From contig NIVC01000897.1 in assembly GCA_002269645.1 (NCBI GenBank), forward strand, positions 351,453-415,452: a stretch of 64,000 nt of DNA, in the 5' to 3' direction. Source of the DNA: Macrostomum lignano. Its lineage: Eukaryota. A program made the translations under genes and the position numbers. Of this stretch, positions 23,496-64,000 are shown piece by piece (the stretch's first letter is position 1; each line of letters opens with the position of its first letter). The notes beneath the pieces were generated by a model. It did not search any database and was not told the DNA's origin. It saw only the letters and a list, made by a program, of their open reading frames with translations.

Positions 23496-26400
23496 ATGCG
23501 AAAGGAAATCATTCTGGATGTCATTGAGCCCGGCCTTGGCGAACTGGAAAGCATTTGGGACTATATTGGTGAGGAGGCATTGCGTGTTCAATAATCTCTT
23601 TCATATCTGTAGCTTTGCTGTACTAGAGTTGCATTGGTCTGTAGCTTTGCTGTACAAGAGTTGCATTGGTCCGTAGCTTTGCTGTACTAGAGTTGCATTG
23701 GTCTGTAGCTTTGCTGTACTAGAGTTGCATTGGTCTGTAGCTTTGCTGTACTGAGTTGCATTGGTCTGTAGCTTTGCTGTACTAGAGTTGCATTGGTCTG
23801 TAGCTTTGCTGTACTGAGTTGCATTGGTCTGTAGCTTTGCTGTACTAGAGTTGCATTGGTCTGTAGCTTTGCTGTACTAGAGTTGCATTGGTTTGTAGCT
23901 TTGCTGTACTAGAGTTGCATTGGTCTGTAGCTTTGCTGTACTAGAGTTGCATTGGTCTGTAGCTTTGCTGTACTAGAGTTGCATTGGTCTGTAGCTTTGC
24001 TGTACTAGAGTTGCATTGGTTTGTAGCTTTGCTGTACTAGAGTTGCATTGGTCTGTAGCTTTGCTGTACTGAGTTGCATTGGTCTGTAGCTTTGCTGTAC
24101 TAGAGTTGCATTGGTCTGTAGCTTTGCTGTACAAGAGTTGCATTGGTTTGTAGCTTTGCTGTACTAGAGTTGCATTGGTTTGTAGCTTTGCTGTACTAGA
24201 GTTGCATTGGTCTGTAGCTTTGCTGTACTAGAGTTGCATTGGTCTGTAGCTTTGCTGTACTAGAGTTGCATTGGTCTGTAGCTTTGCTGTACTCATACTA
24301 TAGACTATCCAGATATAAGATCATCGTGTACGGACGGCAGTGATCTTTTCGGCTTTGTACAAGAACAAAGAAATTGTACTAGCTTTGTAGCTTTATTTAC
24401 TATAAGCTATAAATAACTTATGATTGAGTCACTTCTGTACTTATCCGATAGAAAATCCTCAGCGTCTCATTGCCATGGCAACCATCCGCCACCCAGGCTA
24501 CCCAGACGAGCAGAGAACGGAGCGACTCCACACTCTCGCCGAGCAGCTTCAGGCACGCATGTTCGACTTCATCTCGGCTGAGAACCAGCGCCGTGTGCAG
24601 CTCGACACGGAAATTGAGGCCCGCAAGCGTCGGGCAGCTCAGATCTGCCAGACTCTGCGCCTGCCGCCCTACTTTCCTCCCCGCGGCCTGCCATCTCTCA
24701 GCCTGCTTGAGCATTTAGACGCGCACATTGCTCAGTTTGAGGCCGAGATTAAAGAAAGACAGGCCCGCCAGTCTGAGCTCACTGCTCAAGTGCGAAGCCT
24801 CTGCGAACGGCTCGGACTGCCGGACGAGACGGCGACGACGAAACCGGCGGAGGCGACGACGACGGATGGCGATGGCGTTGATTCGACGACTGATGCTGAC
24901 GATGCTATCCCGAGCGAGCAGGTGAGAACCAAACACTCGCCGTGATGGGTGCTCAGGCCGCTAGGAAGAAATGTATTGTATTTACATGTAGCTACAGAAT
25001 GCAGAGTAGGCCAACCCACAGAGCACACTATACTAGTATGTCAGGGCTGCGTACGTATCAGTGCTCGTGCTTAAGTGCTCAGCGGAATGGACACAACTGC
25101 GGGTCGCCTTGATTTGCTGCAATGTCAGTAGTTCCTCCATGGGAACTAGCTAAGTAACTAAGTAATGCATATTATCTTGTAACTCCACTCCCAGGGTACT
25201 GCATTGTAAATAACACCCTGAATGTTTTGAAACAGCTTTGGGTACAGGCACACAGATTGATATGCAATTCAACACCGTGCGTTTGAAATTGTACCTAAGG
25301 AGCGAAATAATGTTTCCAAGCCTTGGAATCGAACCCCGGAACTTTGGTGCGAGTTTTAAACGTATTATTGCTCTACCATTGCTGCCTCTTCAAGACAGTG
25401 AACGTGGGACGACAAATTAAGCGTTTAACTCTCCTATACAGTACTTACAGACCTACGTATTGCCTACCGTCCGACTACTCTTACACACTTCTTATTTTTC
25501 ATTCTCATTTCACTCCTACGTCCTACGCAGGACCTCGAGCGTCTGCAGTCTCGAGTAGCGGAACTCGAGCGACGTCGCGACGACATGCTCAAACGGCTGT
25601 CCGGCCTTGCGGAGGACGTCAGACGAATCGCCCTGGACATAGAGTTCGCCGGCAGCCCGGCAGGGTCTGGCGCGGACGACGCCGCGCAGGCTCTGGAGGA
25701 CGCGGTGCTCGCCGGCGAGGAGACAACGCGGCTGCCGTTGAGCGACGCCACACTGAGCCAGCTGGAGGCCCTGCGACTCCGACTGGTGAAGCACAAAGCG
25801 ATGCTGGTTGGCACCTGCGACGAGTTGCGTCAGCACATCCGGGTGATGTGGACCAGGCTGGACATCCCACACGAGGAGCAGGAGGCGTTCTTGGCGCAGC
25901 ACGCTGGCTACAGGCAGAGCACTCTGGATGCGCTGCAGGAGGAGTCGGACAAATGCCAGGAGCTCAAGTGGTCCCAGGCTACGGCCTATCTGGCTAATCT
26001 GAGGAGAGAGGCCAGGTTAGTGGACGGAAATTGTGAAGGTACAATCTCTAGACTTGTCAGAGGCAGCCCCCAAGGCAGAGAGTGTACATGCCTGGCGATG
26101 AGAAAGTCTGGGCCGCTGTACACCCTGTGTGAGCGTGTGCCTGCGTACAGTATCCATGTGCGTTGCTCAGGCGTCAGCGGAATGAGCATGACTGCCAGCC
26201 TCCTCGGTCGCCTGTTGTTCGCCTTGATTTGCAGCTTGATTGGCAGCGCCAAAAAGCCCCACCTTGCGAATTATATCACTGAATATAACTTTTAATATCT
26301 CTCCGCTGTCCCTCAGCGAGCTGCGCGCCACCTGCTTCCTCGACGACACTGGCGACGAAGCCGACGAGGATGCCGCACTGATCGGCGGCGACCTGGACGA

Positions 26401-31490: not shown

Positions 31491-46373
<14,883 letters not shown>

Positions 46374-46425
46374 GTGAGATGCGCTGCGGTATCTGGCCGC
46401 AAACTGAGCTGAGAGTTAAAACAGA

Positions 46426-47188
46426 AGTAGAAGGCATGAGGGGGCTTCTGGGACAAAATTTTTCACCTCCTCCATAATCCACCTAAATCCATCCATATTA
46501 TCCCTGACAGAATCAGAAAAAAAGGGGGGTCGCACCTGCTAACAAAACGTCTTCCATAATCCACCTAAATCCTTCCATATTATCCCTGACAGAATAAGAA
46601 AAAAAGGGGGGTCGCACCCGCTCACAAAACGTCCTCCATAATCCCATTAAATCTATCTATATTATCCCCGACAGAATCTTGAAAAAGGGGAGGGGTTGCA
46701 CTTGATCCGAAAACTTTAATCCCATTAAATCCATCCATATTATGACTGACAGAATATGGGAATATGGGTCCACTAACACCTGTTATGTTCACTGACACTG
46801 ACATAATCCACTAACATCTTCGAAACAATAAGAAAATAATCTGAATTCTTCTCCCCACATTCAATTTGCAACGTGCTACCAGATCCCTAAGACTTTAAAT
46901 CATCAGCGCAGGGTCCTTACCCTTTGAAAAAAATTAAATTTTCAATAAAAATGTTTCCAGTTGTCTCTCCAGGTTCTTATTATACTCAGCCTAATCCATT
47001 GTACAAATCCAAGTACCAATGCAAACTTGAATGCAGCGAATACATGAGAAAATATTGGCCCAACGTTGATATCAATGTCCCTAATATTAATCTAGCTCTC
47101 CAAAGACTTTGGTTTCATAAGTATGGAGTAACCTATGTAAAAGATTACGACAGCTACTATAACTTTGCAGAAATCATTAGGCAATTGT
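46426..47188 (+). repeat. Left terminal inverted repeat (~760 bp) with ~82-bp subterminal tandem units
   Basis: 46454-47188 is the reverse complement of 63297-64000, with scattered indels. The unit CCATAATCCACCTAAATCC...CTGACAGAAT...GGGGTCGCACC repeats 3-4 times. Confidence 0.93.
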
Positions 47189-47190
47189 AG
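46951..47190 (+). CDS. 79-aa Tyr-rich orphan ORF inside the left TIR
   Basis: AAAAATG start as in other element genes. A counterpart with indels lies in the right TIR (63529-63295, minus). Confidence 0.5.
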   Translation: MFPVVSPGSYYTQPNPLYKSKYQCKLECSEYMRKYWPNVDINVPNINLALQRLWFHKYGVTYVKDYDSYYNFAEIIRQL

Positions 47191-47540
47191 AATGTCGTTA
47201 CAATACGCTTTAAGACTTTAAGACTGCATTAATAGATATTTTTACGCATGGTATTTTGCTGTGTGGCGGGTTGGTGATAGCGGAATGGGTATGGCAGCTG
47301 TCTTGTCATAGCGCGAGCGGCGTGTGCAGCATAGAGAAAAAAGCTTTTGCCCAGCTCAAGCCTTAACTAGCTCAGAAGATCCCTTGCCTAGCTTCAGAAA
47401 CGCCCATTTAGTTCCTTGTTTAAACCCCCAGCCTTCTCAACCCCCAGCTCTTTCAGCAGTCTTCCTAGATCTTTTCCAGGCAACCCCAATCAACCATTAA
47501 TAGAAAATACTGGCTATAAGTAGAAAATCTGCGGGTTTCC

Positions 47541-47621
47541 CTTCTAGAATTCGAATTCTAGAAAATTCTAGAACAAAAAGAGAATCCGTGGATTCCCGAG
47601 CCCACACCAATGGTATATATA
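47541..47621 (+). promoter_or_regulatory. Heat-shock element, CCAAT and TATA upstream of ORF 47739
   Basis: aTTCt-aGAAa-aTTCt-aGAAc (47555-47574) is four perfect alternating nGAAn pentamers, with cTTCt-aGAAt at 47541-47550. CCAAT at 47607. TATATATA at 47614. Confidence 0.7.
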
Positions 47622-47738
47622 CAGCCGATTCACACCGCCCCTCGCCTCACCCTGCCTGCTCCGCCTCGCCTCGCCCCGCCTCAACTCGCTGAGCCAGCAA
47701 CTTCTTATTTTTGACTAGCTTAATCTCTGTATCTTGCC

Positions 47739-48362
47739 ATGGATGAAGAAATGCAAGCAGGCAACAACGTTTACATCCAAAATCTGGAGAACTTCATCAA
47801 GGCGGTTTTTTCTAGTAAAGATCTCGACAACTGGAATCTTTGGGCCGATAAATACAATGCAATTGCTCGGTCACCAATCGTGAAGCCAACTATCAATGGA
47901 CGGCTAGCGAAAACTACCGACAAGCAATTACAAATCGGCAAGGCTCTGGACGAGTTGCGCACGGCCTATAAAACCAACAGTGAGCCTGTGCCAGTGCATT
48001 CTCTAGAAGAATTTATGCAGGGAACATTTACGATCGACGCAGTGCTTGTACAGATTGCCAACCTTCATAAGCTAGTTGAACGGTATGGCAAGCATGGCTT
48101 TGCAAACGGCCTACAGCTCGGCAGGATCTTTCTGAGAATGGAGCGGGTTCTCAGTAAGGAACAGTTCAACGAGCTGAAAAGACGTGCACCGTTCACCAGC
48201 CAGTGGACCAACTTTCTGATGAAATTGGCTGACCAAGCTGAGAAATATCCGGTGCTACAAAGATCTGCAATGTCCCTGCACAAGCTGAAGTCGATGATTG
48301 CATACTTGCCAGAGGCCCTTGCGATGCTGCAACAGGAAGTGGACGAAGGCTTGTTGTTTTGA
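47739..48362 (+). CDS. 207-aa orphan helical protein, possibly DNA-binding
   Basis: Intact ORF with GCCATGG context. The C-terminal half (GLQLGRIFLRMERVLSKEQF...FTSQWTNFLMKLA) loosely resembles DUF3102-like helical domains by eye. Confidence 0.75.
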   Translation: MDEEMQAGNNVYIQNLENFIKAVFSSKDLDNWNLWADKYNAIARSPIVKPTINGRLAKTTDKQLQIGKALDELRTAYKTNSEPVPVHSLEEFMQGTFTIDAVLVQIANLHKLVERYGKHGFANGLQLGRIFLRMERVLSKEQFNELKRRAPFTSQWTNFLMKLADQAEKYPVLQRSAMSLHKLKSMIAYLPEALAMLQQEVDEGLLF

Positions 48363-48457
48363 CTTTTAAATTAGCAATGTATTGTTTATTTAGCAACTCA
48401 TGAAGCTATAATAATAGCAAGTTATCCTTGGATAGTTTTTTATTACTAATATTGACA

Positions 48458-49767
48458 CCAACCTCAAATTTTGAAACCACTGGTTTCATTTTCTGGGGTG
48501 GTTGTTTAACAAGTATGCCATTTTGATTGCCCACCTCAAATTTTGAAACCACTGGTTGCAAATTTTGAAATTTGCTTGGGACAGTGTAGAAAAATGTTTC
48601 TGCTGGAAGCAGTGCAGAACTCAGATCACCCACCTCAAAATTTGAAACCAACGGTTTCATTTTCTGAGGTGGCTGTTTGACTAGGAGAGCGTAGAAGAAA
48701 ACGGAGGGATCACCCAGAAGGTTGTACTTTGTAGAGTGTAGACGTAAGTTTTAAAAATAAAACCCTTGGGAGAGCGTAGAAGAGATCACCCACCTCAAAA
48801 TTTGAAACCAGTGGTTTCATTTTCTGAGGTGGCTGTTTGACTAAGCTCGGGAGAGCGTAGAAGAAAACGGAGCGGCTAGTTGTGGAGGCTAGAAAAAGAA
48901 AGACCCCCTCCCGCCCGGATCAACCCTCAACCCTCTGCAATTCTCTTTTTTGGCTTTGGCGCTGCACTGCACAGAAGTGAATTGCAGAGGGAGGGTGGGT
49001 GGAGAGAGAAGAGGGGACTTGTGGCGGAATGCGCGGACTGCATGCAGTGAGTGGCAGGGCGGGTGAGAACTGGATAGCGCAGCAGTGTAGACCCACCTCA
49101 AAATTTGAAACCAGCGGTTTCATTTTCTGAGGTGGCTGTTTGACTAAGCTCGGGAGAGCGTAGAGCTAGTTGCGGAGGCTAGAGAAGCAGTGCAGAACTC
49201 AGATCACCCACCTCAAAATTTGAAACCAGTGGTTTCATTTTCTGAGGTGGCGCGGCGCCCCTGTGCAAGAGAGCCCAGTGCTCTGGCCCGGACTGTTGGG
49301 GAAGGGAAAGGGAGAGGAGCTCAAGGGGAAGGAGATTTCAGTACAACGGGAGAGTCAAAATTCCCAGGCGCTTCTCTACCCCCAGCGCGAGATCGCTAGT
49401 GTTATGTTTGACTAAAAATAGAATGAGCTCGGGAGAGCGTAGAGCTAGTTGCGGAGGCTAGAGAAGCAGTGCAGAACTCAGATCACCCACCTCAAAATTT
49501 GAAACCAGCGGTTTCATTTTCTGAGGTGGCTGTTTGACTAGGAGAGCTTAGAGAGAGCTAGTTGCGAAGAGAGGCACCCAGAGGACAGGCTTGGAATGAG
49601 AGGCGGTGGGGCAAGACGGGTGAGAGAAGGGCTGGCCTGAGAGTTGGTCTACCCAGACCCCCCGGCCCTCTCTGGGGGTTGGGAGGCTAGAAAAAGAAAG
49701 ACACAAGCGTCTTTAGAGGATCACCCACCTCAAAATTTGAAACCAGCGGTTTCATTTTCTGAGGTGG
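48458..49767. repeat. Array of 8 copies of a 43-bp imperfect palindrome separated by variable spacers
   Basis: CCACCTCAAAATTTGAAACC-AGY-GGTTTCATTTTCTGAGGTGG at ~48458, 48531 (partial), 48630, 48790, 49093, 49208, 49487, 49725. Confidence 0.92.
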
Positions 49768-49910
49768 CTGTTTGACTAGTTGCGGAGGCTAGAAAAAAAA
49801 GAGACAGGCAGAACTGGGCGGGGTGTTCAGTGTGGTGGGACTGGGGAGAAAAAGCAGGCGCTCACCCAGAAACCTTTTATATTGTTGCATAGTTTAGACC
49901 CTGCACATAC

Positions 49911-50217
49911 GGGGTTGTAGCCTAGTGGTTAGGGCGTCGGACTCACGACTTGTATGAAGGTTGGGGGTTCGATTCCCGATCCCCCTGCAACAATCTGTGT
50001 CTTTGAGCAAGGCACTTTACTCCGCATTGCTTCAGTTCACCCAGCTGTAAAATGGGTACCAGCATTAGCTGGAGTAATTGAGGGTGTGTGTGGCGACCCC
50101 CAGTCCTTGGACTGAACAGCCGCACGCAGCCTTCAGATGCGCCGCGCAATAGCTGCGGCTGAGCTGTCGATTGCACATCTGCCCATTGGGCAGTTGTAAT
50201 CAATTATTATTATTATT
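49911..50217 (+). mobile_element. tRNA-derived CORE-type SINE inserted in the Polinton
   Basis: A box TAGCCTAGTGG and B box GGTTCGATTCC, then GTGTCTTTGAGCAAGGCACTTTACTCC..GCTTCAGTTCACCCAGCTGTAAAATGGG resembling the MIR CORE domain, then a (TTA)n tail. Confidence 0.8.
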
Positions 50218-50544
50218 TACCTACGATAGGCATTCTGTCTTCTGCTGCATGCTCTGTTGTTGCCACGTTGCTTACCACATGAAAAACTATAATAAACTAA
50301 TAAACTATATAGCGACTATAATCTGTCGCTACAGTCCTTCAGTTGTTTATCAATGTAAACTGTTCAGCAGTCTTTCTAATTCTTTATTTGGCGTGCGCAA
50401 TACAAAGGAAAGAAAGGAAAGGAAAGGAAAGCACGCGTGGAACTTGTACATTCGCAAAAGCTGCGCTCCCTCAGCAAATAGCAGTTACCCCACCCCTTGT
50501 CGAAATGCAGCTGTTGCGCTTGGCTGCGAATAATCTTTCCCGAC

Positions 50545-51033
50545 TCAAGCGCCTCTCTCAACCCCCAGCTCTTTCAACAGTCTTCCCAATTCATTGTTTG
50601 GAGCACACAAAATAAACCCCGCTCCCGAGCACTCCGCACACCCGCCCTCTCTCCCCAAACACCCACCTTCGCCTTGAACCCCCAAACCCAACTTTGCCTT
50701 ACTAAAAATAACAGCTTTAACTAGCTTCCGAGCAATCGACTCACGAAATCCGCTTGAAGCCCCTATATTGTCTAGTCTCTTAAGCATTTCTTTGTCCCAG
50801 CGATTCTTCTCCTCAGGAAAATCTCTATATTTAACATCGTGCCACATGCAGACAGAGTCTAGCTCATTCACAGGCTCATGCCCAGGATTTGGGTTGTTGT
50901 TTCCATCCAGCTGTATTTCAAGAGGATTCAAAGGCCCGCAATATTTATAGCCGGGAAGTGTCCAGCCTTTGTTTGGATGAGGAAGCTTTTCTATCAGTCC
51001 ATGTGAATCTATTTTACCACCAGAGCGTTGCAT
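50545..51033 (-). CDS. Parvovirus VP1u-type phospholipase A2 protein (162 aa from ATG 51033)
   Basis: LPGYKYCGPLN Ca2+ loop and PVNELDSVCMWHDVKY catalytic HD motif. Confidence 0.9.
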   Translation of the reverse strand: MQRSGGKIDSHGLIEKLPHPNKGWTLPGYKYCGPLNPLEIQLDGNNNPNPGHEPVNELDSVCMWHDVKYRDFPEEKNRWDKEMLKRLDNIGASSGFRESIARKLVKAVIFSKAKLGLGVQGEGGCLGREGGCAECSGAGFILCAPNNELGRLLKELGVERGA

Positions 51034-51063
51034 TATTTTATTTAAAATTTTCTTTTTAAATAA

Positions 51064-52101
51064 ATGACAGATCAGAAACTTAAAAAACTCTACTACAGCG
51101 ACAAAGGATTCTTTGTAGGCAAAAATGCCGTTAGTAAACTCATGGAGCTGAGTAAAGAGCCAAAAGCTACAGTAGAAAAATGGCTCTCTAAGCAGGCTGT
51201 CTTTCAAGTCTATTTCCCACCAGTAAAATTTGAAAGGCCCCATTTCAGTATTTATAAACCTAATGAAGCGCACCAAGCAGATCTTTTGTTTCTCCCCAAC
51301 GACTCAGGCTACAAGTATGCTCTTACAATTATTGACATTGCTTCCAGATATAAGGAAGCTCGCCCACTCAAGACGAAGAAGTCAGAGGTTGTTGCCAGCG
51401 CACTGCAAGATATTTATAAAAACTCTCCGCTCACATACCCCCAAATCTTTATGACCGACCCGGGTAAGGAATTCATGGGTGTAGTGAAATCCCTTATGGA
51501 AAAGAAAAACACAGAGATTCGCTATGGCAGAACAAACTTGCACAGAGACCAGGCTTTTGTGGAAAGATTCAATCTAACTCTAGCCAAGAGACTATTCACT
51601 AAGCAGACAGCGCAAGAACTCAAACTGAGTGCGGGGCAGTACTATACCAAGTGGACAGAAAGACTCCCCACTGTTATAGAGCAACTGAACAATGAAGTCA
51701 CACGCATGACTGGATTGAAACCATCCCATGCAATTAAACAAGACACTGTCGAACTTAAGGCATCTCATAAAACAGACAACAACACGACAACCCCACACAA
51801 CACACACAACACAAAGCACACCTCGAACTACCCTAAGCTTCCAGGAGTTGAATCACCATACATACTGACAAACTCTGAGTTTCTACGCTTTTTATATCTA
51901 CCTGGAGAGCTAGAGAAAGACACCAAAAGAAGAGCTACAGATCCATACTTCAGCCTTGATGTGCATAAAATAGACAGACATTTTACCTCCGACTCCGGTG
52001 ACTATTACTTTTTATCTCAAGCCTTTAACCCTAAATCCCCCACGCGGTCATTCACTAGAGCTGAACTCCTAGTGATACCAGCTGACACAGAAATTAATTA
52101 A
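51064..52101 (+). CDS. int: Retroviral-like (rve) integrase of the Polinton
   Basis: DDE triad contexts HQADL, MTDPGKEF and VERFN. C-terminal YLPGELE..RRATDP..FTRAELL typical of Maverick integrases. ORF is intact. Confidence 0.95.
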   Translation: MTDQKLKKLYYSDKGFFVGKNAVSKLMELSKEPKATVEKWLSKQAVFQVYFPPVKFERPHFSIYKPNEAHQADLLFLPNDSGYKYALTIIDIASRYKEARPLKTKKSEVVASALQDIYKNSPLTYPQIFMTDPGKEFMGVVKSLMEKKNTEIRYGRTNLHRDQAFVERFNLTLAKRLFTKQTAQELKLSAGQYYTKWTERLPTVIEQLNNEVTRMTGLKPSHAIKQDTVELKASHKTDNNTTTPHNTHNTKHTSNYPKLPGVESPYILTNSEFLRFLYLPGELEKDTKRRATDPYFSLDVHKIDRHFTSDSGDYYFLSQAFNPKSPTRSFTRAELLVIPADTEIN

Positions 52102-52117
52102 AATATTAAAATAAAAA

Positions 52118-52495
52118 ATGACAAAGATTGAAACTAGAACCATCAATAAACTCAATAAAATCATTGAATCAAAGAAACCAGGTATTATATCAATTAAAGG
52201 TGTCAAAGTAAAAATCGATCCCACGCAGCAAATAGTTCAGTGTAATGAACAAAGACACAGCATCACAGATGAAAAGTCAGGAGGAATCCTACCATTAGCA
52301 GCTCTTATTCCGATCATTGCAGGCGCTGTAAGTGCCGCAGGTGGTGTAGCTGGAGGTGTAGCAACTGCTGTTAAAGCTGGGAATGATAGAGCCCACCAGC
52401 TGGAATTGCAAAAGATTGCAAGAGACAAAGGTATAACAATTAAGGCAGGAGAGGGCTGCCCGATCGTGATGATTGTGAGCATGAAAATTCTGTAA
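52118..52495 (+). CDS. Small protein with an adenovirus pX (mu) precursor-like hydrophobic segment
   Basis: GGILPLAALIPIIAGAVSAAGGVAGGVA resembles adenovirus pX GGILPLLIPLIAAAIGAVPGIASVA. Confidence 0.75.
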   Translation: MTKIETRTINKLNKIIESKKPGIISIKGVKVKIDPTQQIVQCNEQRHSITDEKSGGILPLAALIPIIAGAVSAAGGVAGGVATAVKAGNDRAHQLELQKIARDKGITIKAGEGCPIVMIVSMKIL

Positions 52496-52686
52496 GCAAG
52501 TCTGACATTGTCAAAGCCATCATGACACTGCACAATGCTGGGTTTACAATAATGCGGATGTGATGAGGTTTAAAACCCCACTTTATCCAGCTTCATAAAC
52601 CTAATACTACTTATAGGATGTAGAAACAGTTCAACTTTTCTATCAGGGTGGTCACCCTCAAAATTTTTTTTATATTTTCGAGAAAA

Positions 52687-55600
52687 ATGCCAAAAGCTAA
52701 TCCAGCAAGAGATTTAGTCAACAAATATTTTTCAAAAGGCGTCTCATTTCAAGACAAAAGTAATTCACTAAGAGAAGCATGCAAACAAAAGTTCAACACC
52801 GACCCCGGTCACCTGGGAAGCTATGAAAAACAGTTGGAAATCATCAATCAATTAGAATCAAACCAGTATGCGCCTATAAAAAATTCTGCAAAGGAACACC
52901 AAGAGAGGAGTCGCAACTTAGTTAACAAATATGAAACTCTCACTGGTGAAAAAGCAAAGTACCCACAAAATAAGCAGGAACAAGAGAAATTAGAGCAATT
53001 AATCCATTTAAAAGAGTCGGAGCTTGCCACTGAAGAGATTAATTTTGCACAGACGAAGTTTACAGAACATTACATAGAGTACACAATCCCAATTAACGGC
53101 ACCAACGGTACCACCGCAAATATCTACGACTATAAAGACAGCATCCAATCAGTTGTTGATCACACACTCAAAACACGCAAGACCTTTAAACTACAGATAT
53201 CATTCAAGATTGCGTTTTATATGCCTGCGAAACCCACTGAGCATCTCGAGTATTACATGACAACAAAGGCAAAGCCATTCACCCCAACAGACACACTGGA
53301 TCCTTTCCTTCAAGATGTCAATAAGAAAATTGAAGCGTTTACATCCAGAGGTTCCGGATGGGTCGTGGGAGGGATTCAAAGAGCGACTGTCATGGTCATG
53401 AAATATGACCCACTTAAAGCCTCCTCTTATATAGAGCTCCCGCATAAGCTAGCCGGTAAAAAAGCTTGCATAAATGTTAAAAATAAAGACAATTGCTGTG
53501 CTCTATGGGCAGTTCTTTCTGCACTTTTTAGTGTACCTCACCACCCCGAAAGAACCTCAAATTATCAAAATTATTTCAACTACTATCTCATTGAATGCGA
53601 AAAGAAGGGAATCAGGTTTGACAAAGGAGGCTTGGCGATCTCTCAGATCCCAAAGCTAGAAGAAGTGTTTAATAACAAAATTAGAATCACAGTCTTTGAG
53701 TGGAGTGAAAAAACTGAGAAAGTTCAACCGGTCAGATGTAGCAAAGACGTTTTAGATCCGAGGGGAAAAGGCGGACTGAAGTGGATCTTCTAGTGATTGG
53801 TAATTTACTAGAGGAGGCTCACTATGTTTGGATTAAAGATCTTTCAAGACTCATACACAAGCAGTTGAATAATCATCACGAGGCTGTTGCCATCTGCCGC
53901 TTGTGCCTTAAGCATTACAGTGGACCTGAACGCTTTGAAAAACTAGCAGAGCATGAATTATCATGCGAGGATCACCCGACAAACTGCTCTCTTCCTTCAG
54001 CTGAAGAGAAGTATCTCCGGTTTAAGAACTATCACAAGATGGAGAAGCTCCCATTTGTTGTATATGCTGATTTCGAATGCTCAATCGTGCCAGAAACTCA
54101 AAAACAAACTCCAACTCAAAAACAAACTCCAACTCAAAAACAAACTCAAACTCAAAAACATGTCCCCAATTCAGTAGCATATGCCTTTATTAATACAAAA
54201 GGACTTGTTGAGTATAATTATTTCTTTGGAGAGCAGTGTGTGGAGCAGTTTATTGCCAGAATGTTAGAGTTGCAAAAATGATTAGCACCCTTCAACCTGT
54301 TCCAATAATGATGACTGAGGAGGATGAAAGCAATTTCCTATCAGCAACTCATTGCCACATCTGCAGGAAACATTTAACTTGCACTAATATTAAAAACCCC
54401 ACCGTTAGGGACCACTGCCACTATACTGGGAAATTTAGAGGTGCAGCGCATAACACCTGTAATCTAAAGCTAAAATCGAACATTCATGATCTAACGATAT
54501 TTTGTCACAACGCAAAGAACTATGACATGCATTTAATAGTTGAAAAAATCGGCATGATTCCAGACATACACCTTGATTGCATCGCAGAGAACAAGGAGAA
54601 GTTTAAGTGTGTTGATATTAAACAGGATAATTCGGGTAAAGGTAAAATAAGACTGAAGGATTCATATCAATTTCTAGCTGCCAGTCTAGACGAACTAAGC
54701 AAGAATCTAAAAGATGAACAATGTACATATACAAAGATGTTTGCAAGTAAAATTAACAACACTGATGAATCATTTAAACTCCTGAGAACCAAAGGCTTCT
54801 ACCCCTATGAAAATATTACTGGGTATCACGTATTTGAAGAAGGTTTACCACCACAAGAAAGTTCTTTTCAAAGCTAACAGACTCTGGAATCTCTGACAAA
54901 GACTATGAGCACGCGAAGCATGTCTATAATTACTTTAATTGTCAAAACTTCTTCCAGTATCACCTGCTTTACCTCTACACAGATGTGTTTCTGCTGGCCG
55001 ATGTGTTTGAAACCTTCAGATCACCTGGTACACAGCATATGGCCTCGATCCAGCACATTATGTGTCTCTGCCTGCCACTAGCTGGGAATCTTTGCTTAAA
55101 ATGAAATGGGATCAAGATCCAGATTGGTACATTGAACTTCTTACAGACATTGACATGTACAATTTTGTCGAATCGTCAAAGCGAGGGGGAATCTCAATTT
55201 GCACATAGATATGCAAAAGCAAACAATCCCTACATTGAATCTTACAATAAGGAGCAGCCCTCAAACTACATTACTTACTTGGACGCTAATAATCTCTACG
55301 GGTGGGCGATGAGTCAAGATCTTCCAGTTAGAGATTTTCGATGGTACCCTCATCAGAATTCAAACGGGACTTTTCATTGGCTGCCATTTATGAGGTTGAT
55401 GTTTACATTCCACCAGAGCTTCACGACTATTTCTCTGACTTTCCACCCTTCCCAGAGAACATCAAGTGCCCGAAAATAATCGAAACTCCCAATGATAATA
55501 ATGGAACTTGGCACCTGTCAGGAACAGAAAAAGAACATACAGAGAAACTAACACAGAATCTAAACAACAAGACACGTTACAAAATCCATTACAAACTGCT

Positions 55601-56559
55601 TCAGTATTTTATCTCACTTGGTTGCAGGGTCACCAAGTTCACCGGGCTCTTACATTTACAGAGGAAGCGTGGATGAAACCCTACATTGATAAGAACACCC
55701 AGTTTAGGACCAAAGCAACCAACGACTTTGACAAGAACCTCTTTAAGTTGGCCAACAACTCTGTCTATGGCAAGACTCTTGAGAATGAGCGGAAAAGAAC
55801 AAACCTGAAACTTGTTACCTCATCAGAGCCTGATGTTATTCAGGCAAATATGTCAAAGCCAACATTCAAAGAACTCCATATCTTTAATAGCTACTTAGGT
55901 GTGATCATATTTTACAAAACCAAGGTGACGCTGCGCAAGCCGATCTATACAGGTGTCACTGTTCTCGACGAATCAAAACGTCTGATGTACCAGTTCTTCT
56001 ATGGCATGAAGCAGCAGTACAAGGATAAAATGAAACTCTTGTACACTGACACAGACAGTTTTATTATGGACATTCAAACAGAAGACATTTATCAGGACAT
56101 GCTGCAGCAAAAAGATTTGTTTGACTTGTCTGAGTATGATGAATCTTTCAGGACACAGAATGGCGATCAAGTGTTTGACGCCACTAACAAGAAAGTGATT
56201 GGGAAAATGAAGGACGAGATTGCTGGTGACATAATCACTGAATTCATTGGGTTGAGAGCAAAGTCCTATTTTATAAAATGTGAGTCGTCAGACCCAATCA
56301 AAAAATCAAAGGGAATTCCGAAACGTGTGTTAGGAAGGAAATTAATGAAGCTGAATACAGAGACGCCTTGAATTGCAACAAAAAGACATCACATGAGTTC
56401 TCAAAGCTACAATCTAAAAACCATATTATTCACACAATTCAGCAAAAGAAGATTGGACTGTCAGGTGCAGATAACAAGAGATTCATTTTTGATGACAATA
56501 TCAACAGTCTACCGTTCGGGCATTGGAGGTTAGGTTTAGGAGGTGGATATTGGGTTTAG
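52687..56559 (+). CDS. pPolB: Protein-primed family B DNA polymerase, broken by several frameshifts
   Basis: GSGW/SYIELP N-terminal region, ExoI YADFE, endonuclease VII-like RDHCHYTGKFRGAAHNTCN, ExoII HNAKNYD, ExoIII YLYTDV..LADVFE, motif A YLDANNLYGWAM, motif B KLANNSVYGKT, motif C LYTDTDS, C-terminal DNKRFI..LPFGH. Confidence 0.95.
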
Positions 56560-56592
56560 GTTTGAGAGAAAGTTTAATAAACCTCATAAAAA

Positions 56593-56993
56593 ATGACAAC
56601 AAATAACTTTCTTGAAGATTTGGCTAACGAACTGGAAATCCCAAACTTTAGAGGAATATTTATGAGGGACACTCTGCCTGATTTTCCTCTAAGAAAAGAA
56701 TGCGGCATCATGAACTTTGACACCACCGATAAGCCAGGATCTCATTGGGTTTGCTGGGTGATTGATCCCATCGCAAGCACAAGTGTTATTACTTCGATAG
56801 CTATGGGACGGCAGTACCAGAAGAGCTAAGAAATTATATGAAGGGAAAAAATAATAAAAAAATTTATCGCTCAGACTTTATTCTCCAAGGTCTTAGCAGT
56901 GATATTTGCGGTGAGCTGTGCATGACTGTTTTGTATGCAATGACCAAAACACGAAAGACCTACAAGGAAATTATTCTTGGCTGTGTTTCATAG
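56593..56993 (+). CDS. Adenain-like cysteine protease (one frameshift at ~56780)
   Basis: GSHWVCW (His), then in the shifted frame YYFDSYG (Asp) and LQGLSSDICGELC (Gln/Cys). Confidence 0.9.
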
Positions 56994-56996
56994 GGT

Positions 56997-57664
56997 TCAT
57001 TGTGCATTCTCGTCGTCCTTCTTGCCGAATTTCTTGCCGAATTTCGCCGACTTTCTTTCCGCATAATGTTGAAGAACTTTCTCGAGTTCATTTCTCAGCT
57101 GACTCATGTCATCAGTACCGACCATGTTCAAGTTCATTCGAATTGATTGTTCATAAAGATCCTGAATGGTTTTGAACTCATCCTCTGAAATGAACTTATC
57201 GTCGATTGCCTTGAAATGTACCCTATGATTGAAGTGTGCACCCCTTTCTCTTTTACTTGCTTCTCCTGTAGCTGCTTTAGTTTTTTTCGCCTGTTTCGCG
57301 CTAATGCTCCAGTAATTGCTGAAATAAGTCCACATGCAGCACCCACAGAGCCGAGCGGGATTGCGATTGGGGCTGTGATGACTGGCAACACTGAGACAGC
57401 TGCAGCAGATCCAGATAGAACAGACACAGATCCTAGAATCATATTGCTGTAGTCGAAAAATTTACAGTGGTTGTCATAGCGCTTAATTTTCTTTGTGTTG
57501 TGGAAAATATTTTTTTCAAGATCATCGCGCATTTTTTGAATCTCCACTAGTCGAAACTGTTGAGAGTTACAAGTAATGACGGGGTAGAGTTTTTGTTGCT
57601 CATATTGGGGTGCACTAGGTGCTGTGGGAGCATTCGGATCATAAAGAGAATTTTGAGCATCCAT
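56997..57664 (-). CDS. Polinton uncharacterised protein with PTAP/PSAP motifs and a hydrophobic hairpin (frameshifted near 57230)
   Basis: APTAPSAP..LYP..FRL.EI..LE N-terminus, two hydrophobic stretches, basic RNRRKK, and a tail AIDDKFISEDEF in a second frame. Resembles a common Maverick family by eye. Confidence 0.7.
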
Positions 57665-57771
57665 TTTTTAGGGAATTTTTTAAAAAAATCGGCAACTAGT
57701 TGGTGGTGGCTAGATTTGTTTTACGGTTGATTGCTTCGTCTGCAGTGACGGCAACAGGTCTCTGAATCTGC

Positions 57772-58514
57772 CTATTCATTATCTGTGAGCTCCATTCTAC
57801 GCATGATCTCAAACAAGTCGGTTGGATCACTTGTTTCCCTTGTGGTCTGTGGTGCCTCTTCAGCGTCAATGTTTTTGAGATTATGCAAGCGTTCAAGACG
57901 ACCGATTCTTCTCACCGATTTCTGCCATTCGGTAAAAACTAAATCTACAAAGACTTTAATTGCAGTAATTCTTACTTTGATTCGATCATGCAACGCTGTT
58001 GACTGAGTCATGAACTCTTCTAAATTCCTCACTTTACCTGTGTTGGTTGCGACGTTTTCTTTAATTCTATCATGCAACGCTGTTGACTGGTTCATGAACT
58101 CTTCTAAATTATTCACTTTAGCTGTGTTTGTGAAAACTCCTCCTTCAAGAATACGCATCCGTCTATCAGTGGAATTTCCAGAAGATTAACTGTCGATCTT
58201 AAGCTGTTGATTTGCGAGACTGCCGAAGTTATTTCTGACCTAAGTTCATTAGTTGCGTTTAACAACGGCACATAAAGCTTATCACTTTCAAACTTCTGCC
58301 TAGCTACTTTAAGCCTGAGATCTTCCATGTTTATTTGCAACTGGTGCATGGAGCGCTCTAGGGCTTTCAGTCTGTTTTTATTCAGTTTGATCTCTGGGAT
58401 CTTTTCGTCGCTGTTGATATATCGCCTGTCAAGGATGGATATCTGAGCTGATGTAAGAGCGCTGTTGCCAGAAATGGATTCACCTGCAAAATTATAGACA
58501 TCTTTTATTAGCAA
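57772..58514 (-). CDS. Coiled-coil protein(s), probably one frameshifted gene, with an internal ~29-aa duplication
   Basis: Overlapping ORFs 58113-58514 and 57772-58158. NLEEFMxQSTALHDRIK occurs twice. Confidence 0.55.
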
Positions 58515-58517
58515 ATT

Positions 58518-59313
58518 TTAAATTACAGTTCTTTTTTCTTGTTGATCATGACAAACTGATAGGGTGTTCCACTTGTCATAGCAAAGATTAACGAATTCCT
58601 CTTGTGAAATCTTTCTGCTTGAGTTTTTTGTTGGATTTATAAAATAGGCAGGCGCAATGACCTCATTGTAAAATCTTTTTAGCCTATCCTGTGGAATGGT
58701 TGGAAACAGGAGAATCAGATTGCAGTTCCCACGAATTGTTTTGTTCGGGAGCTCGAACCAGTTCTGTGCAATGTAAATTACATTACAATTGTTATGTCGC
58801 CCTCTTGTAAAATAGTTTTCTATCTGCTTCTGTGGGCCTGTCATACAATCATCAAAGACGATCAAATGCTTTCTCCCTTTTCTAGCTCATCTGGTTGGGG
58901 TAGAAGTTTGGTCTTTGGATCAGCCTGTGGATCTCCATAGGTGAACACTTTAATGTTCTGCCATTTTTCATTGTCTTTGAGGTGCTTTGCATATTCAGCA
59001 GCTACAATTTCTGGGTTACTGGGAAGGCACATTTGGTTATTAAAACATTGAATAATGTCCTCTTTGTTCAGTTTGTTTTGCAATCCAGAAATCAGCATTT
59101 TATACTCATCTTGATACAGTGTGGGAGAGTAGATGTGCAGAGTGTCATAGTCGATAAAGCCAGGTCTAAGAAGCATGTTAAAGACTCTGAATGTTTTACC
59201 TGAACCTGATGAACCAACAACAATGCATCTGAAGTGACTCGGGATTGACTCGTGATGAGAAAACTTAATCTGATTACGCGTCCAGTGAGGATTGAAGTCG
59301 TTTGAAAGTCCAT
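58518..59313 (-). CDS. A32/FtsK-like DNA packaging ATPase (frameshifted)
   Basis: Walker A CIVVGSSGSGKT (read in the alternative frame at ~59200-59240), Walker B IVFDD, and RGRHNNCNVIYIAQ. Confidence 0.93.
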
Positions 59314-59521
59314 TTTTTCTATGATTGAAAAAAAATTAAATAATAAATCATTTAGAAGATGTGTCATTTCGGGACTTGAATGTGTCGTTTTGGGACTTAG
59401 ATGTGTCATTTTGGGACTTAGATGTGTCATTTCAGGACTAGTCTTATACTCTTACATGTCTTGTACCCTTGAAAGTACCTTTAGTCAAATTTGAAACCAC
59501 TTCCTTTTTTAATGCTAGCTC

Positions 59522-59842
59522 TCATCTTCTCATAGACTGCAGGGTCCACACTGTCTGGATTTGGGGCCAGCGGGCCAGCGGGGCCAGTGGAGGTTGAATC
59601 TCTTGTTTAGGTGTTACAGTATCCTTTATCTTTTTGGCTGCTGTGGCTACACTGCCAGCCGCTTCGGCAACGTTCTTGATGTTCTCTTTGTTCTCTCCAA
59701 TGACCTTAAAAATCTTAGCCCCCTGAGCGATCAAATCGGCAAGGCCATTCCCGAGCGTCTTTTCTTGGATAGTGGCCTGCAGGGAAAAGTCCAGATCCGC
59801 GTTTAATAAGATTAAGTTCCTCTTTGTCATAGTATTTGTCAA
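59522..59842 (-). CDS. Small protein with a predicted amphipathic helix
   Basis: GNGLADLIAQGAKIFKVIG..AEAAGSVATAAKKIK. Sits in the virion gene block. Confidence 0.55.
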   Translation of the reverse strand: MTNTMTKRNLILLNADLDFSLQATIQEKTLGNGLADLIAQGAKIFKVIGENKENIKNVAEAAGSVATAAKKIKDTVTPKQEIQPPLAPLARWPQIQTVWTLQSMRR

Positions 59843-59884
59843 TGTCTTTTTCGAAAATAATTGGCATCTTTTTTAAATAGATAT

Positions 59885-61094
59885 TTATTTTTTGTTGAAC
59901 CGCGAAAGCAGAAGCTCTCTCGCCCTCTTATCGATGTATTTTCTCTCAAGCATTTTATTGAGGATGTTGACAAATTCTTTTCTATTTTCATCTTTCATTC
60001 CGGTCTTTGCCGCTCCTAGAAGAACCGCTACTCGCTTGTAGATTTCAGAAATTCCTTTTCCAGTTGAGGGCGGTTGGTCTTGGGGTTGTGGAGTTGGTTG
60101 GGCTTGTAGCTGCTGGGGAGGTGATGCAAAAGACTGCTCACTTTCAGAGACGGAACTGTCATGTGGTGCCTGTCTTTGTTGAGGTGTGAAAACTCTTTGC
60201 TTGATTCTGTTCATTCGATCTGGAGAGTGTTGTTCTAAGTGTTGCCAGTCTGTTGGGTTTTGTTTCTTATATTCAGCTACTTTCAAAGGGTCTAACTGCT
60301 CGAGTTGACTGAGTACTTGTTCTTCTGTGAAATGTTGCTGCTGTTGTGGCGGTCGTTGTTGTTGTGGTTGCTGTTGCTGTTGTTCTAGATATTTCATCTG
60401 ATCAATGACTTCCCCTGATCTGGCAAACCAAACCATTGTTTAAAGTGCTTGTACTTTTTGAATTTAGTCAGGTTGACACCGTTATCATACATAAGTCTCA
60501 GGACTTCTGGGGCCTTTAGTATTTCTATATCTCTAGCAAGAGCAAAAGTCACTAGATCTCTGTAGTTCTTTAGCTGCTTGTCCGAGATTCTCTCTTGGTT
60601 CTTGGTCATAAAAGTCAGTAAGGCGTCTGTGAAAGGAATTTTTCATAGTTCTAGCCTTTGACAACAGAAATATTTTCTTATTTATGTCGATATAATATTC
60701 CACTGGTTCATTATAAATGTTTTTCTCCACATACTTATTCCAAATACATATTTCCCATCATGTTCGACACGCTCTACTGGTCCAAAAATGTTATCTGTCA
60801 CTTTTAGTTGTGATTGATGTGGTTGTGGTTGTTGTGGTTGCGGCTGTATCTGTGGTGCTTCTGGAATTTTGCCCAAAACCTTTTGCACTTGGGTTTCCTG
60901 TATGTCGTCGATAGTTTCTTTGACCTGATCAATATTTTTCTTAGCTTCTCCATACCCGGCTTATGAAACTCTGTGGCTGCTTGGACAAACTCATTGTAGG
61001 ATTGTTGCTCCTTATTTATTAGCCCGGTAACTCGTTTCTCTGCTTGTGCTAGCTTCTCCAATTCAGATATCTGCTGTGTACTTTTTCGCTTCAT
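59885..61094 (-). CDS. Conserved uncharacterised Polinton protein (PZ-like, tentative), split by frameshifts, with Gln/Pro-rich inserts
   Basis: Fragments FHKPGMEKL, DNIFGP..DGKYVFG, DKQLKNYRDLV and TGKG..KRVAVLLGAAKTG..EFVNILNKM follow the order seen in a widespread Maverick protein (recognised by eye). Confidence 0.55.
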
Positions 61095-61124
61095 TTCTTA
61101 TTTTATTTTATTTTTAGTTAAAAA

Positions 61125-62406
61125 ATGAACGACCCACTGACACCAGTTTTCTACAAAATTAACAAGCCTATTTTGAGTGATGATAGCACAATCAAAGCGA
61201 CTCAGGTAAGAGTTCCAGTCAGGAAAATCAGAATGAAACTAATCTTGGTCCTGGTCAAACACTGACATTTACATACAATGGATGTTCGTCTTTGGTTAGT
61301 GTGCACAGTCTTAAGAGCGGCTTCCATATGACATTTCAATTCAAGACAAAGGTGGTGCGGATGCGGCTCGTGCTAACGTTGACAAGCATGATGCGGATGT
61401 GGCTCTGATCAGTAACTTTTGGGCGTACATGTTCAAGGAGTTTAGTGTATCGAATGGGAGCACTGAGTTGGAGCGAATCGCCAACTTTGGAATTGTCTAT
61501 GACGCTCATTGTTTGATCGAGAATCCTGATTTTATTCAGTTGGGAAGTGGTGCGGGTTTATTGCAGATGAAAAAGAAGGAGATATCAATGACAGTGGCTA
61601 TAAAAAGAGGAAGAAGAGATACAACTATGCATTGCAAGGTGCTGATGATGCTGCTAAAAACCCGCTGTATCGGTCTGTTGATGTATTTGTACCACTGAGA
61701 TTCATGAGTGGATTCTGTAATACATTTAATCGACTGACTAGTAACTTTAGCTACACCTTTAGGATGACTAGAGATGATCGCAGTAGAGTGTTGTGGACTG
61801 GGGCGGACCACACAAGGATGGAGGTGAAGCTAACCGGAATCGAGCTGTATTTGGAAGTCATTGAGCAAAGACTGCACTAAAAGCAGATTATCTTAAGGCA
61901 ATAGAGAAGGACATTGATGTTGCATACACGGCCTACATGTGTCGAGATGAGCGAAACGAAACTAGAACAAACATCTGCATTAAAGAGGGATCATGCAGCA
62001 ATCCAAGGTATATCATTATTAATATGAGAAACCCAAATAGCATTATACGCTACATGCATGGAGACGTGCGGTCCATTCAGCATGAAATCAGTGATAATCT
62101 TTACCCTGCACTGCCACAAAATGGAGATTTCAGTCAGAACAAGATTAGCAAATTTATAGCGAGTTGGTCGACTTGGCTGTGAAAGAGAACAATGGAATTG
62201 CTATCACTGCTCTTCAATATGGAACTCTATATCCGATGTTTGGCGCTGATGTGTCTGCCAGACAAATGCCTACTGATAACAGCCCTGTGAATATCGTGAC
62301 TAACATTGAGAGGACTGTCGCAACACCCGTGGACCTGTACATTATCTATGCATTTGAGAGGAAGGTGAAGCTTAACATGATCAACAATTCATCCAGTAAA
62401 GTTTAA
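61125..62406 (+). CDS. Double jelly-roll major capsid protein (PY/hexon-like), multiple frameshifts
   Basis: ~1.28 kb. Motifs VFVPLRFMSGF..TFRMTRDD, VKLTGIELYL, NPRYIII and LYPMFGADVSARQ match Polinton MCP patterns. Lies directly upstream of the penton gene. Confidence 0.75.
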
Positions 62407-62429
62407 ATATTTTTTTGTGGGTGAAAAAA

Positions 62430-63290
62430 ATGGAAGCTATAGCCGAAAGACTAAACAATATTATTTCGCACTCCAAGGAGAGCATTCCTATTACAATAAC
62501 TGGGCGATTAATGACTCAAACGGGATATTTGTTCAAAAATTAGAGCAGGCGATTAGCCTGGATCCAGGTGCTAATTACCATGTCTATCTTAACGACTTCA
62601 CTGGTTGGTCAAACGTTCCCAATGTGACGGCAGCAAATAATAAGTTTTATTACAAATGGAAAGGTGCAGCAGCAGAACCTGTGGTATTCCCTGTGAGCAC
62701 GCAAAGTGTGGATACCTACAATTACTTTCTAGAAAACGTCTTTACTAAAAGAGGCCATTTTGAGACACCTGATATGAGTAAGCCAGAGAAGAAACTGTTC
62801 CCTGTTAAACTAACCTATGATCTCACTGTAATGAGAGTGGTCATGCAAGTTCACAAAGATGCGGAGGTTGAGTTTAAAGATGACACTTGGTATAGGGAAT
62901 TGGGATTCGTGAAGAAAGTTTATAAGCAGAATCCACAGCGCGGACTGTCACTCAAGCATCGGGGCCGTTAGCATGGCCCGGGAAAGTGTACGCGGTTTGT
63001 TCTTAGCACCCAATATAGCAGACATTGTAAAGGGTTTGAATATTCTAATCAGAACTAATCTCAGTCTTGATTGGGTATTTAAGGGAAAGCGAACTAATAT
63101 TTTGTACAACATCTCCAACTCTGTAGCTGGAGGACAGATGGTGGTAGAGAAACCAAATCCAGTGAAAAGAGTTGTATTGAGTAATAAGGAGATTCACGAG
63201 ATTGTGCTTCAGTTTGAGACTGAAGATGGGATGGGCGTTGATTTTAATGGGGAAGAGTTTGTATTGACGTTAATCATTGAGAGAATGTGA
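62430..63290 (+). CDS. Single jelly-roll minor capsid protein (penton/PX), frameshifted
   Basis: ISLDP..YHVYL..WSNVPNVTAANNKFYY, ELGF and EKPNPV..IHEIVLQFETEDG..VDFNGEEF..L are typical Polinton penton motifs. Confidence 0.82.
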
Positions 63291-63296
63291 GAAATC

Positions 63297-64000
63297 ACAA
63301 TTGCCTAATGATTTCTGCAAAGTTATATAGCTGTCGTAATCTTTTACTAGGTTACTCCATACTTATGAAACCATGTCTTTGGAGAGCTAGATTAATATTA
63401 GGGACATTGATATCAACGTCGGGCCAATATTTTCTCATGTATTCGCTGCATTCAAGTTTGCATGGTACTTACTCTTGTAATGGATTAGGCCTGCGTATAA
63501 TAAGAACCTGGAGAGACAACTGGAAACATTTTATTGAGAATTTATTATTTTTTTTCAAAGGGTAAGGACCCTGCGCTGATGATTTAAAGTCTTAGGGATC
63601 TGGTAGCACGTTGCAATTGAATGTGGGGAGAAGAATTCAGATTATTTTCTTGATTGTTCGAAGATGTTATGGATTATGTCAGTGTCAGTGAACATAACAG
63701 GTGTTGTGACCCATATTCCATATTCTGTCAGTCATAATATGGATGGATTTAATGGATTAAAGTTTTCGGATCAAGTGCCTCCCCTTTCAAGATTCTGTCG
63801 GGATAATATAGATGATTTAATGGGATTATGGAGGACGTTTTGTGAGCGGGTGCGACCCCCTTTTTTTCTATTCTGTCAGGGATAATATGGAGGATTTAGG
63901 TGGATTATGGAAGACGTTTTAGCAGTGCGACCCCTTTTTTCTGATTCTGTCAGGATAATATGGATGGATTTATGGATTATGGAGGAGGTGAAAAATTTTG
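63297..64000 (-). repeat. Right terminal inverted repeat (truncated by the window end)
   Basis: Reverse complement of 46454-47188. The window ends ~28 bp short of the expected terminus. Confidence 0.93.

Follow-up and report, generated by a model that had tools for sequence, protein, structure and literature searches.

An array of palindromes in an animal Polinton that looks like docking sites reshuffled by recombination

What might a row of near-identical palindromes be doing between two genes of a Polinton? Almost nothing is established about cis-acting control in these elements beyond their termini, and their extrachromosomal persistence is an open question. We analysed such an array in a stretch of 64,000 nucleotides (hereafter the window, meaning the whole stretch at its full length), following a first-pass annotation made from the letters alone. 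The feature is real and well defined. It looks like a set of docking sites reshuffled by recombination and not like a memory of foreign DNA, a reading that is at present a prediction.

The element and the place of the array

The array lies in a Polinton/Maverick element that extends from 46426 to beyond the end of the window (64000), about 17.6 kb. The host DNA in the window is that of an animal and contains introns as well as a high-copy SINE. The Polinton context proposed in the first-pass annotation holds, as terminal inverted repeats (TIRs), an rve integrase, pieces of a type-B polymerase and an A32-type ATPase were all found. The features needed here are:

46426..47188, + strand: left TIR, starting AGTAGA and containing 82-bp tandem repeats
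47739..48362, + strand: intact 207-aa ORF, the candidate binder, all-helical, its C-terminal domain weakly DUF3102-like and ParB-DNA-binding-like
49911..50187, + strand: tRNA-derived, high-copy host SINE inserted beside the array
50545..51243, − strand: PLA2-domain gene (PF08398, E 1.7e-13), convergent on the array
51064..52101, + strand: rve integrase (PF00665, E 2.1e-8, above the cut-off)
59487..59499, + strand: 13-mer like the left arm of a core, upstream of the ATPase gene, which may be there by chance

The TIRs are about 760 bp long, and 46454-47188 aligns with 64000-63297 at 93% identity. This alignment holds 9 mismatches against 28 gap openings; such gap-rich differences would be typical of long-read assembly error, so the many frameshifts of the element may in part be artefacts. 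The protein-primed type-B polymerase gene is split over several frames in the assembly, with a DNA_pol_B_2 match on one piece (E 1.3e-5, 24.8 bits against a cut-off of 25.8). The A32-type packaging ATPase has a Walker A motif in translation and a Pox_A32 match below the cut-off (E 0.002), and a pX-like gene is present. General Pfam profiles matched no major or minor capsid protein and no protease, in the pieces at 61187-63290 or elsewhere. The SINE gives a tRNA-like match of 28.4 bits, slightly below the gathering score of 29, with loose ends at 49911 and 50187.

The array occupies the gap between the stop of the 207-aa ORF (48362) and the end of the PLA2 gene (50545), and starts 96 bp past that stop. 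It is flanked by the 3' ends of two convergent genes, downstream of both and not positioned as a promoter. The operator first suggested, if it means promoter control, is a poor fit for a position behind both the 207-aa gene and the convergent PLA2 gene.

Other observations in the window concern neighbouring sequence. The Polinton is inserted about 50 bp past the GT splice donor that closes a coding exon (45945-46426); this exon probably belongs to a HEAT/TOG-domain gene, and an upstream ORF (44381-45196) matches HEAT and CLASP_N. A direct repeat of 36-40 bp (47430-47474 and 50551-50595) reads LGRLLKELGVE, the end of the PLA2 ORF, on the − strand of both copies, which indicates that a piece of the PLA2 gene tail was duplicated beside the left TIR; a 16-bp stretch at 49371, inside a 153-bp insert of the array, matches the repeat (E 0.03). 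Four 21-bp tandem repeats (59357-59439) lie upstream of the ATPase gene, close to the core-like 13-mer. Farther away are a gag-pol LTR retrotransposon with zinc knuckle, protease, RT, RNase H and integrase (16669-20672) and an ORF matching the MAP65/ASE1 (PRC1-like) family (25585-26295, E 9.5e-17).

Anatomy and variation of the array

Eight 43-bp imperfect palindromes, or cores, were confirmed between 48459 and 49767. Each arm consists of an 8-bp outer box, five A/T-rich bases and a 7-bp inner box, and three bases form the centre. Cores, spacer and inserts, listed here without strand, are:

48459..48501: core 1, outer stem 6/8 around an intact inner 7-3-7 palindrome
48531..48573: core 2, degenerate, outer 4/8, inner 6/7
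48630..48672: core 3, full palindrome, loop AAC
48704..48767: 64-bp low-copy stretch, its start resembling a truncated core, related to a stretch near 49862-49900
48790..48832: core 4, full palindrome, loop AGT
48902..49080: 179-bp insert, holding a separate hairpin with a 13-bp stem (48931-48943 / 48979-48991)
49093..49135: core 5, full palindrome, loop AGC, left flank departing 2 nt from the core
49136..49207: uninterrupted 72-bp spacer, the reference unit
49208..49250: core 6, full palindrome, loop AGT
49252..49404: 153-bp insert, starting 1 nt past core 6 without a duplicated target
49487..49529: core 7, full palindrome, loop AGC
49566..49681: 116-bp insert that interrupts the CTAGTTGC/GGAGGCTAGA module and ends in 4 nt of microhomology
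49725..49767: core 8, full palindrome, loop AGC

In cores 3-8, 17 of the 20 arm positions pair symmetrically (outer 8/8, middle 2/5, inner 7/7) and cores 1 and 2 score 14, whereas the best 20-3-20 symmetry outside the array is 13 over 12,958 positions of the element and 15 over 46,358 positions of host DNA. The two stems that had been described for every core are both complete in six of the eight, cores 1 and 2 being the exceptions; the inner 17-bp palindrome is perfect in seven. The half-site CCACCTCA-N5-TGAAACC, with up to three mismatches, occurs 15 times in the 64 kb, every time within the array. Cores 3-8 differ only at loop positions 2 and 3, one of which is a CpG site. Folded as a hairpin, the core reaches z -5.7 on the + strand and z -7.2 on the − strand. 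The partial core reported near 59487 comes down to the 13-mer at 59487-59499, which is there but is weak evidence, because simulated 13-kb element DNA yields some core 13-mer in 11% of 300 trials.

The gaps between cores measure 29, 56, 117, 260, 72, 236 and 195 bp, which lowers the bottom of the range given earlier (about 72-260 bp) to 29. Spacers do share modules, as had been noticed: relative to the reference spacer, the others are a unit of about 72 bp minus deletions, plus inserts of 64, 179, 153 and 116 bp. These four inserts enter the unit at four different points, with no target duplication, and the stretch of about 150 bp noted between GAGGTGGC and TGTTTGACTA is the 153-bp insert at 49252-49404. 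The stretches once called unique are not wholly so, for an 8-mer, AGYGYAGA, recurs (17 copies in the window, 11 in the array, the latter all on the + strand) and two of the stretches are related to each other (0/200 shuffles). CTAG is found 13 times in 1,342 bp (48458-49800) against 36 times in 13,000 bp elsewhere in the element, the array copies mostly within duplicated modules.

Identical flanks between pairs of cores run for 2-61 nt on the left and 1-29 nt on the right, a mosaic in which the core is the constant part and the flanks are shuffled around it. The 72-bp spacer holds many breakpoints and the core few, those of cores 5 and 6 hugging the palindrome, and core-to-core spacing has no helical phasing. 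Two candidate explanations for the repeat unit were rejected. A short frame runs through the unit, but it lacks a start codon and its residues are altered by the loop changes, so it is not a coding repeat; a conserved block starts A|TC and ends CTRR, the pattern of Helitron ends, but nothing suggests dispersed copies.

The stretch or part of it is present in 20 of 24 listed public sequencing runs, from seven studies of one organism. Contigs of four runs were compared, one per study, one of which may be the source of the assembly. Among the pieces listed, the 179-bp insert was found in three of the four runs with 0, 0 and 1 differences, and the 153-bp insert in three of four with 3, 3 and 4 differences and, in addition, 1-2 gaps. 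Core 8 was skipped between short direct repeats in three of four runs (joint 49678-49776), two runs had a longer skip over it, and core 2 was replaced in two (joint 48507-48568). The visible change between runs is in core number, which varies by deletion between short repeats, and not in insert turnover. Mean depth of the array was 1.5, 1.15, 0.57 and 0.70 times that of the 207-aa ORF in the respective runs and that of the SINE 400-5,700 times, figures used as an order-of-magnitude contrast only because depth is not copy number; by this contrast, cores and inserts do not resemble repeats scattered through the host. Rare variants are lost in contigs, and the SINE swamped the tables of joints, loose ends and pieces, so other versions of the array may exist. 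Contigs of three runs also hold a second version of the 207-aa gene (47731-48101), diverged by about 7-10%, which shows that a sister subfamily exists.

A candidate binder and the readings of the array

We consider it most plausible, at a probability of about 40%, that the array is a set of binding sites for a dimeric, probably element-encoded protein acting as an enhancer or a tether, a reading that draws on geometry, position and weak remote homology. Binding sites or an hr-like enhancer had been proposed before, and this is still the best reading of the array, if unproven. An internal origin is unlikely in an element with a protein-primed polymerase.

The array would be a cis-acting cluster of sites on double-stranded DNA. 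The inner half-sites are two identical 7-bp sequences flanked by the two outer 8-bp boxes, and the 3-bp gap between them puts their centres 10 bp, or one helical turn, apart, which is the layout of classic phage operators. A dimeric helix-turn-helix (HTH) protein could read such a core, and its likeliest source would be the 207-aa gene directly upstream. Once bound, the protein may act as an enhancer, as at baculovirus hr, or it may play the part of a plasmid centromere protein and tether the free linear genome or organise it. The array would grow, shrink and have its flanks swapped through recombination and template switching, both within the palindromes and beside them, and the long inserts would be inherited relics of such events.

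What is known of the candidate protein gives a lead on DNA binding, not a result. The 207-aa protein has four credible relatives with 27-46% identity, one of them from Macrostomum lignano (PAA54076.1); two very long proteins with repeat-driven matches (P0004 and P0006) were excluded from the alignment. Its N-terminal half is helical in a low-confidence model, and the C-terminal domain is predicted to be a helical bundle (pLDDT 82.5, pTM 0.74) that is basic in all five homologues (pI 7.9-9.6). Searches brought in little else. Word-based protein searches returned none for the single sequence and none among longer proteins, and a word-based profile search returned only three relatives already in hand. 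Foldseek found nothing at E 0.001 or better in PDB and BFVD, the best E was 0.15 against PDB sequences and 0.4 in tblastn against phages, and PHROGs gave five single-member matches, all to unnamed families.

The C-terminal domain weakly resembles DUF3102 and ParB DNA-binding domains, below significance. The Atlas put DUF3102 on 11 of 30 named matches (0.93, 155 shared features), and DUF3102 ORFs are the two best non-self matches among 1,356 ORFs. A profile-profile comparison with DUF3102 (29 sequences) was in register over 62 columns, with a score of 21.3 and a probability of 7.8%; none of 200 shuffles reached the score in the first controls, and 1, 2 and 5 per 100 block shuffles did (8/300). 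None of the five family members matches Pfam PF11300 (DUF3102) at E up to 10. In structural comparison, at least 90 of 123 residues of the C-terminal domain were aligned in 7 of 50 rows, among them two ParB DNA-binding domains (1vz0, Z 6.0, r.m.s.d. 5.4, 101 aligned; 6s6h, Z 5.7, r.m.s.d. 5.5, 95 aligned) and three Raf1, all at Z 5.5-6.0, but every Z was below 8, which the tool grades as a common and uninformative arrangement. A ParB HTH profile (22 sequences, after 2 misfits of 24 were dropped) scored 12.1, lower than its shuffle median of 12.6 and than the 15.2 of an unrelated FliS control (23 sequences of 25 taken). The putative recognition helix of the candidate protein is without the arginines that are present in DUF3102. 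The ParB N-terminal CTPase domain has no Pfam match in the 207-aa ORF or the scanned ORFs of the element.

Binding, the identity of the binder and its effect are what we infer from these data. The reading gains from core symmetry far above background and from the arms of cores 3-8, which are invariant although shared flanks can be as short as 1-2 nt; moreover, the end copies are the degenerate or dispensable ones, as is reported for sopC (PMC3177203). Against it, every protein-level link is weak, recent duplication alone would suffice to make cores 3-8 identical, the spacing of the cores has no helical phasing, and no ParA-type partner was found among the ORFs of the element. It is quite unlikely, in our estimate, that the animal Polinton carries a whole partition-type module, with a DUF3102/ParB-like HTH protein and, directly behind its gene, a centromere-like array tethering or segregating the free linear genome in the nucleus. 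EBNA1, which with FR does so for a herpesvirus, offers an analogy. In such a module the overlapping IRF motif could let host antiviral signalling compete for the same sites.

A doubtful but serious competitor dispenses with function. A fold-back palindrome in intergenic DNA would have been copied through hairpin or cruciform slippage, breakage and templated repair, the last bringing in patches of 60-180 bp, and mosaic, deletions and inserts would follow without any binder. The right arm of core 2 matches a left arm in inverted form, a sign of fold-back copying; breakpoints at cores 5 and 6, the skipping of core 8 in three of four runs and the replacement of core 2 in two, and the irregular, unphased spacing all suit this account, and 18 tandem-repeat entries elsewhere in 46000-64000 mark the element as repeat-prone. 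Yet long palindromes tend toward deletion rather than retention, and here seven of eight inner palindromes are perfect, at least six cores persist and breakpoints concentrate in the spacer rather than the core. More unlikely is an enhancer for a host factor, with the right arm of the core as a putative ISRE/IRF site through which the element senses or exploits antiviral signalling, and the palindrome as a by-product of duplication. The motif GTTTCNNTTTC occurs seven times in 64 kb, all in cores, where 0.73 are expected, and diverged core 1 retains it, but the seven matches amount to one event copied, the motif was picked out in hindsight from the many factor motifs that could have turned up, and the 8-bp outer boxes and 7-3-7 symmetry are left unexplained. 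Two published sites bear a likeness to the arm. It carries, with all 12 bases identical, the 12-mer GGTTTCATTTTC that is quoted as ISRE-like in FeLV and is one base off the consensus quoted there (PMC3185530, in excerpt), and the human TOR3A site GCGGTTTCATTTCCC, tabulated with a validation reference in the available part of PMC2175519, agrees with cores 5, 7 and 8 at 13 of 15 positions.

Two further ideas of the first-pass annotation fared worse. A small-RNA or structured-RNA locus, with the cores as processing or stability hairpins and the hairpin of the 179-bp insert as a microRNA precursor, is very unlikely. As RNA the cores do form stable folds, more so on the − strand (-23.9, z -7.2), but any palindrome folds, and microRNA precursors are usually longer than a 43-nt hairpin with a 3-nt loop. 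The first + strand AATAAA past the 207-aa ORF stands at 48756, which would allow a 3' UTR that includes cores 1-3. A precursor-sized hairpin at 48915-49005 (+) reaches z -3.7 (0/200 shuffles; z -3.7 to -5.8 by window), but outside the cores just 1 of 40 scanned segments has z of -3 or below, compared with 2 of 81 in the background, the other inserts show no structure and no Rfam family reaches the gathering score. Programmed capture of foreign DNA at the hairpins, by a CRISPR-like or integron-like process, is highly unlikely. Inserts split the reference unit cleanly, one of them starting 1 nt after a core, and the box-gap-box-loop layout recalls integron attC sites. But only one of four inserts abuts a core end, their lengths range from 64 to 179 bp and there is no target duplication; the two long inserts are nearly unchanged across runs, and array depth stays at the level of the ORF while that of the SINE does not. 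Inserts have no significant match in the rest of the 64-kb window, and the ORFs of the element hold no tyrosine recombinase, HUH or Cas-like match. Because the inserts recur, enter the unit at different points and have no outside source in sight, CRISPR-like capture is unsupported.

If the binding-site reading is true, it would supply the first named protein-DNA control module of a Polinton and a function for an orphan protein family that is also present in a flatworm. If it is false, an IRF enhancer or an ordinary unstable repeat is what remains.

Relatives of the array and known systems

The full palindrome had no match in viral contigs or in prokaryote genomes. A shorter pattern of 22 bases had 16 single matches in metagenomes, all stopping short of the outer boxes, and three single matches in prokaryote genomes. 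Searches of contigs and genomes by the ORF, the ORF alignment, the integrase, the polymerase piece and PLA2 returned no related loci. The literature searched, thin in its coverage of subscription journals, held no description of such a Polinton array, and the available parts of accounts of Maverick architecture (PMC8097293) and adintovirus genes (PMC8502044) do not mention one. By its genes, the element resembles the PLA2-bearing 'adintovirus' Polintons as portrayed in excerpts of PMC8502044, with long TIRs, rve integrase, type-B polymerase, A32-type ATPase and a pX-like gene, and the array and the 207-aa ORF sit in a flanking accessory region when set beside the Maverick architecture outlined in part in PMC8097293. 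Gene order differs from the vertebrate adintovirus/Maverick layout in those excerpts, and no protease match was found here.

A CRISPR array gains unique spacers of one uniform length at a single position, whereas the array here has spacers of 29-260 bp made largely of shared modules, with inserts at four different points. Integron attC sites have AAC/GTT triplets, extrahelical bases and a tyrosine recombinase, whereas the arms here lack the triplets and the extrahelical bases and no tyrosine recombinase was matched. The ISRE/IRF-E consensus GTTTC-NN-TTTC is found in the right arm of seven of the eight cores, a putative site that, unlike a plain ISRE, forms part of a long palindrome with no full site in its other arm.

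The closest architectural match is baculovirus hr. In the available text of PMC4535591, hr are non-coding stretches of viral DNA in which three to eight conserved repeats each carry an imperfect palindrome, and they serve as enhancers and origins, with enhancer strength scaling with copy number; repeated imperfect palindromes in conserved repeats are what we see here. The palindrome is a 43-bp two-box structure here and 24 bp in hr, and hr are dispersed, whereas the Polinton has one array with all 15 half-sites in it. The enhancer and origin activity of hr depends on a viral activator. No relative of IE1 was found, and this is a protein-primed linear element with no obvious need of an internal origin.

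In the F-plasmid centromere sopC, too, an array of palindromes, each arm 7 bp long, follows the gene of a helical protein; the excerpted description places it behind sopB, with degenerate first and last repeats and the SopB site TGGGACC-N2-GGTCCCA (PMC3177203). The inner site here, TGAAACC-N3-GGTTTCA, has the polarity of that site and five of seven bases per arm in common, but its centre is 3 bp instead of 2 bp, and the cores are irregularly spaced where sopC consists of exact 43-bp tandem units (PMC3177203, in part); the number 43 is shared by coincidence, being the unit length there and the palindrome span here. SopB reads its site through recognition-helix arginines, according to the part of PMC2910045 at hand, and the candidate recognition helix here is without them. 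In contrast to SopB/ParABS, there is no ParA, no significant sequence likeness to ParB and a eukaryotic host. Repeated palindromic cis-elements are already known in viruses and plasmids, and their occurrence in a Polinton would be new.
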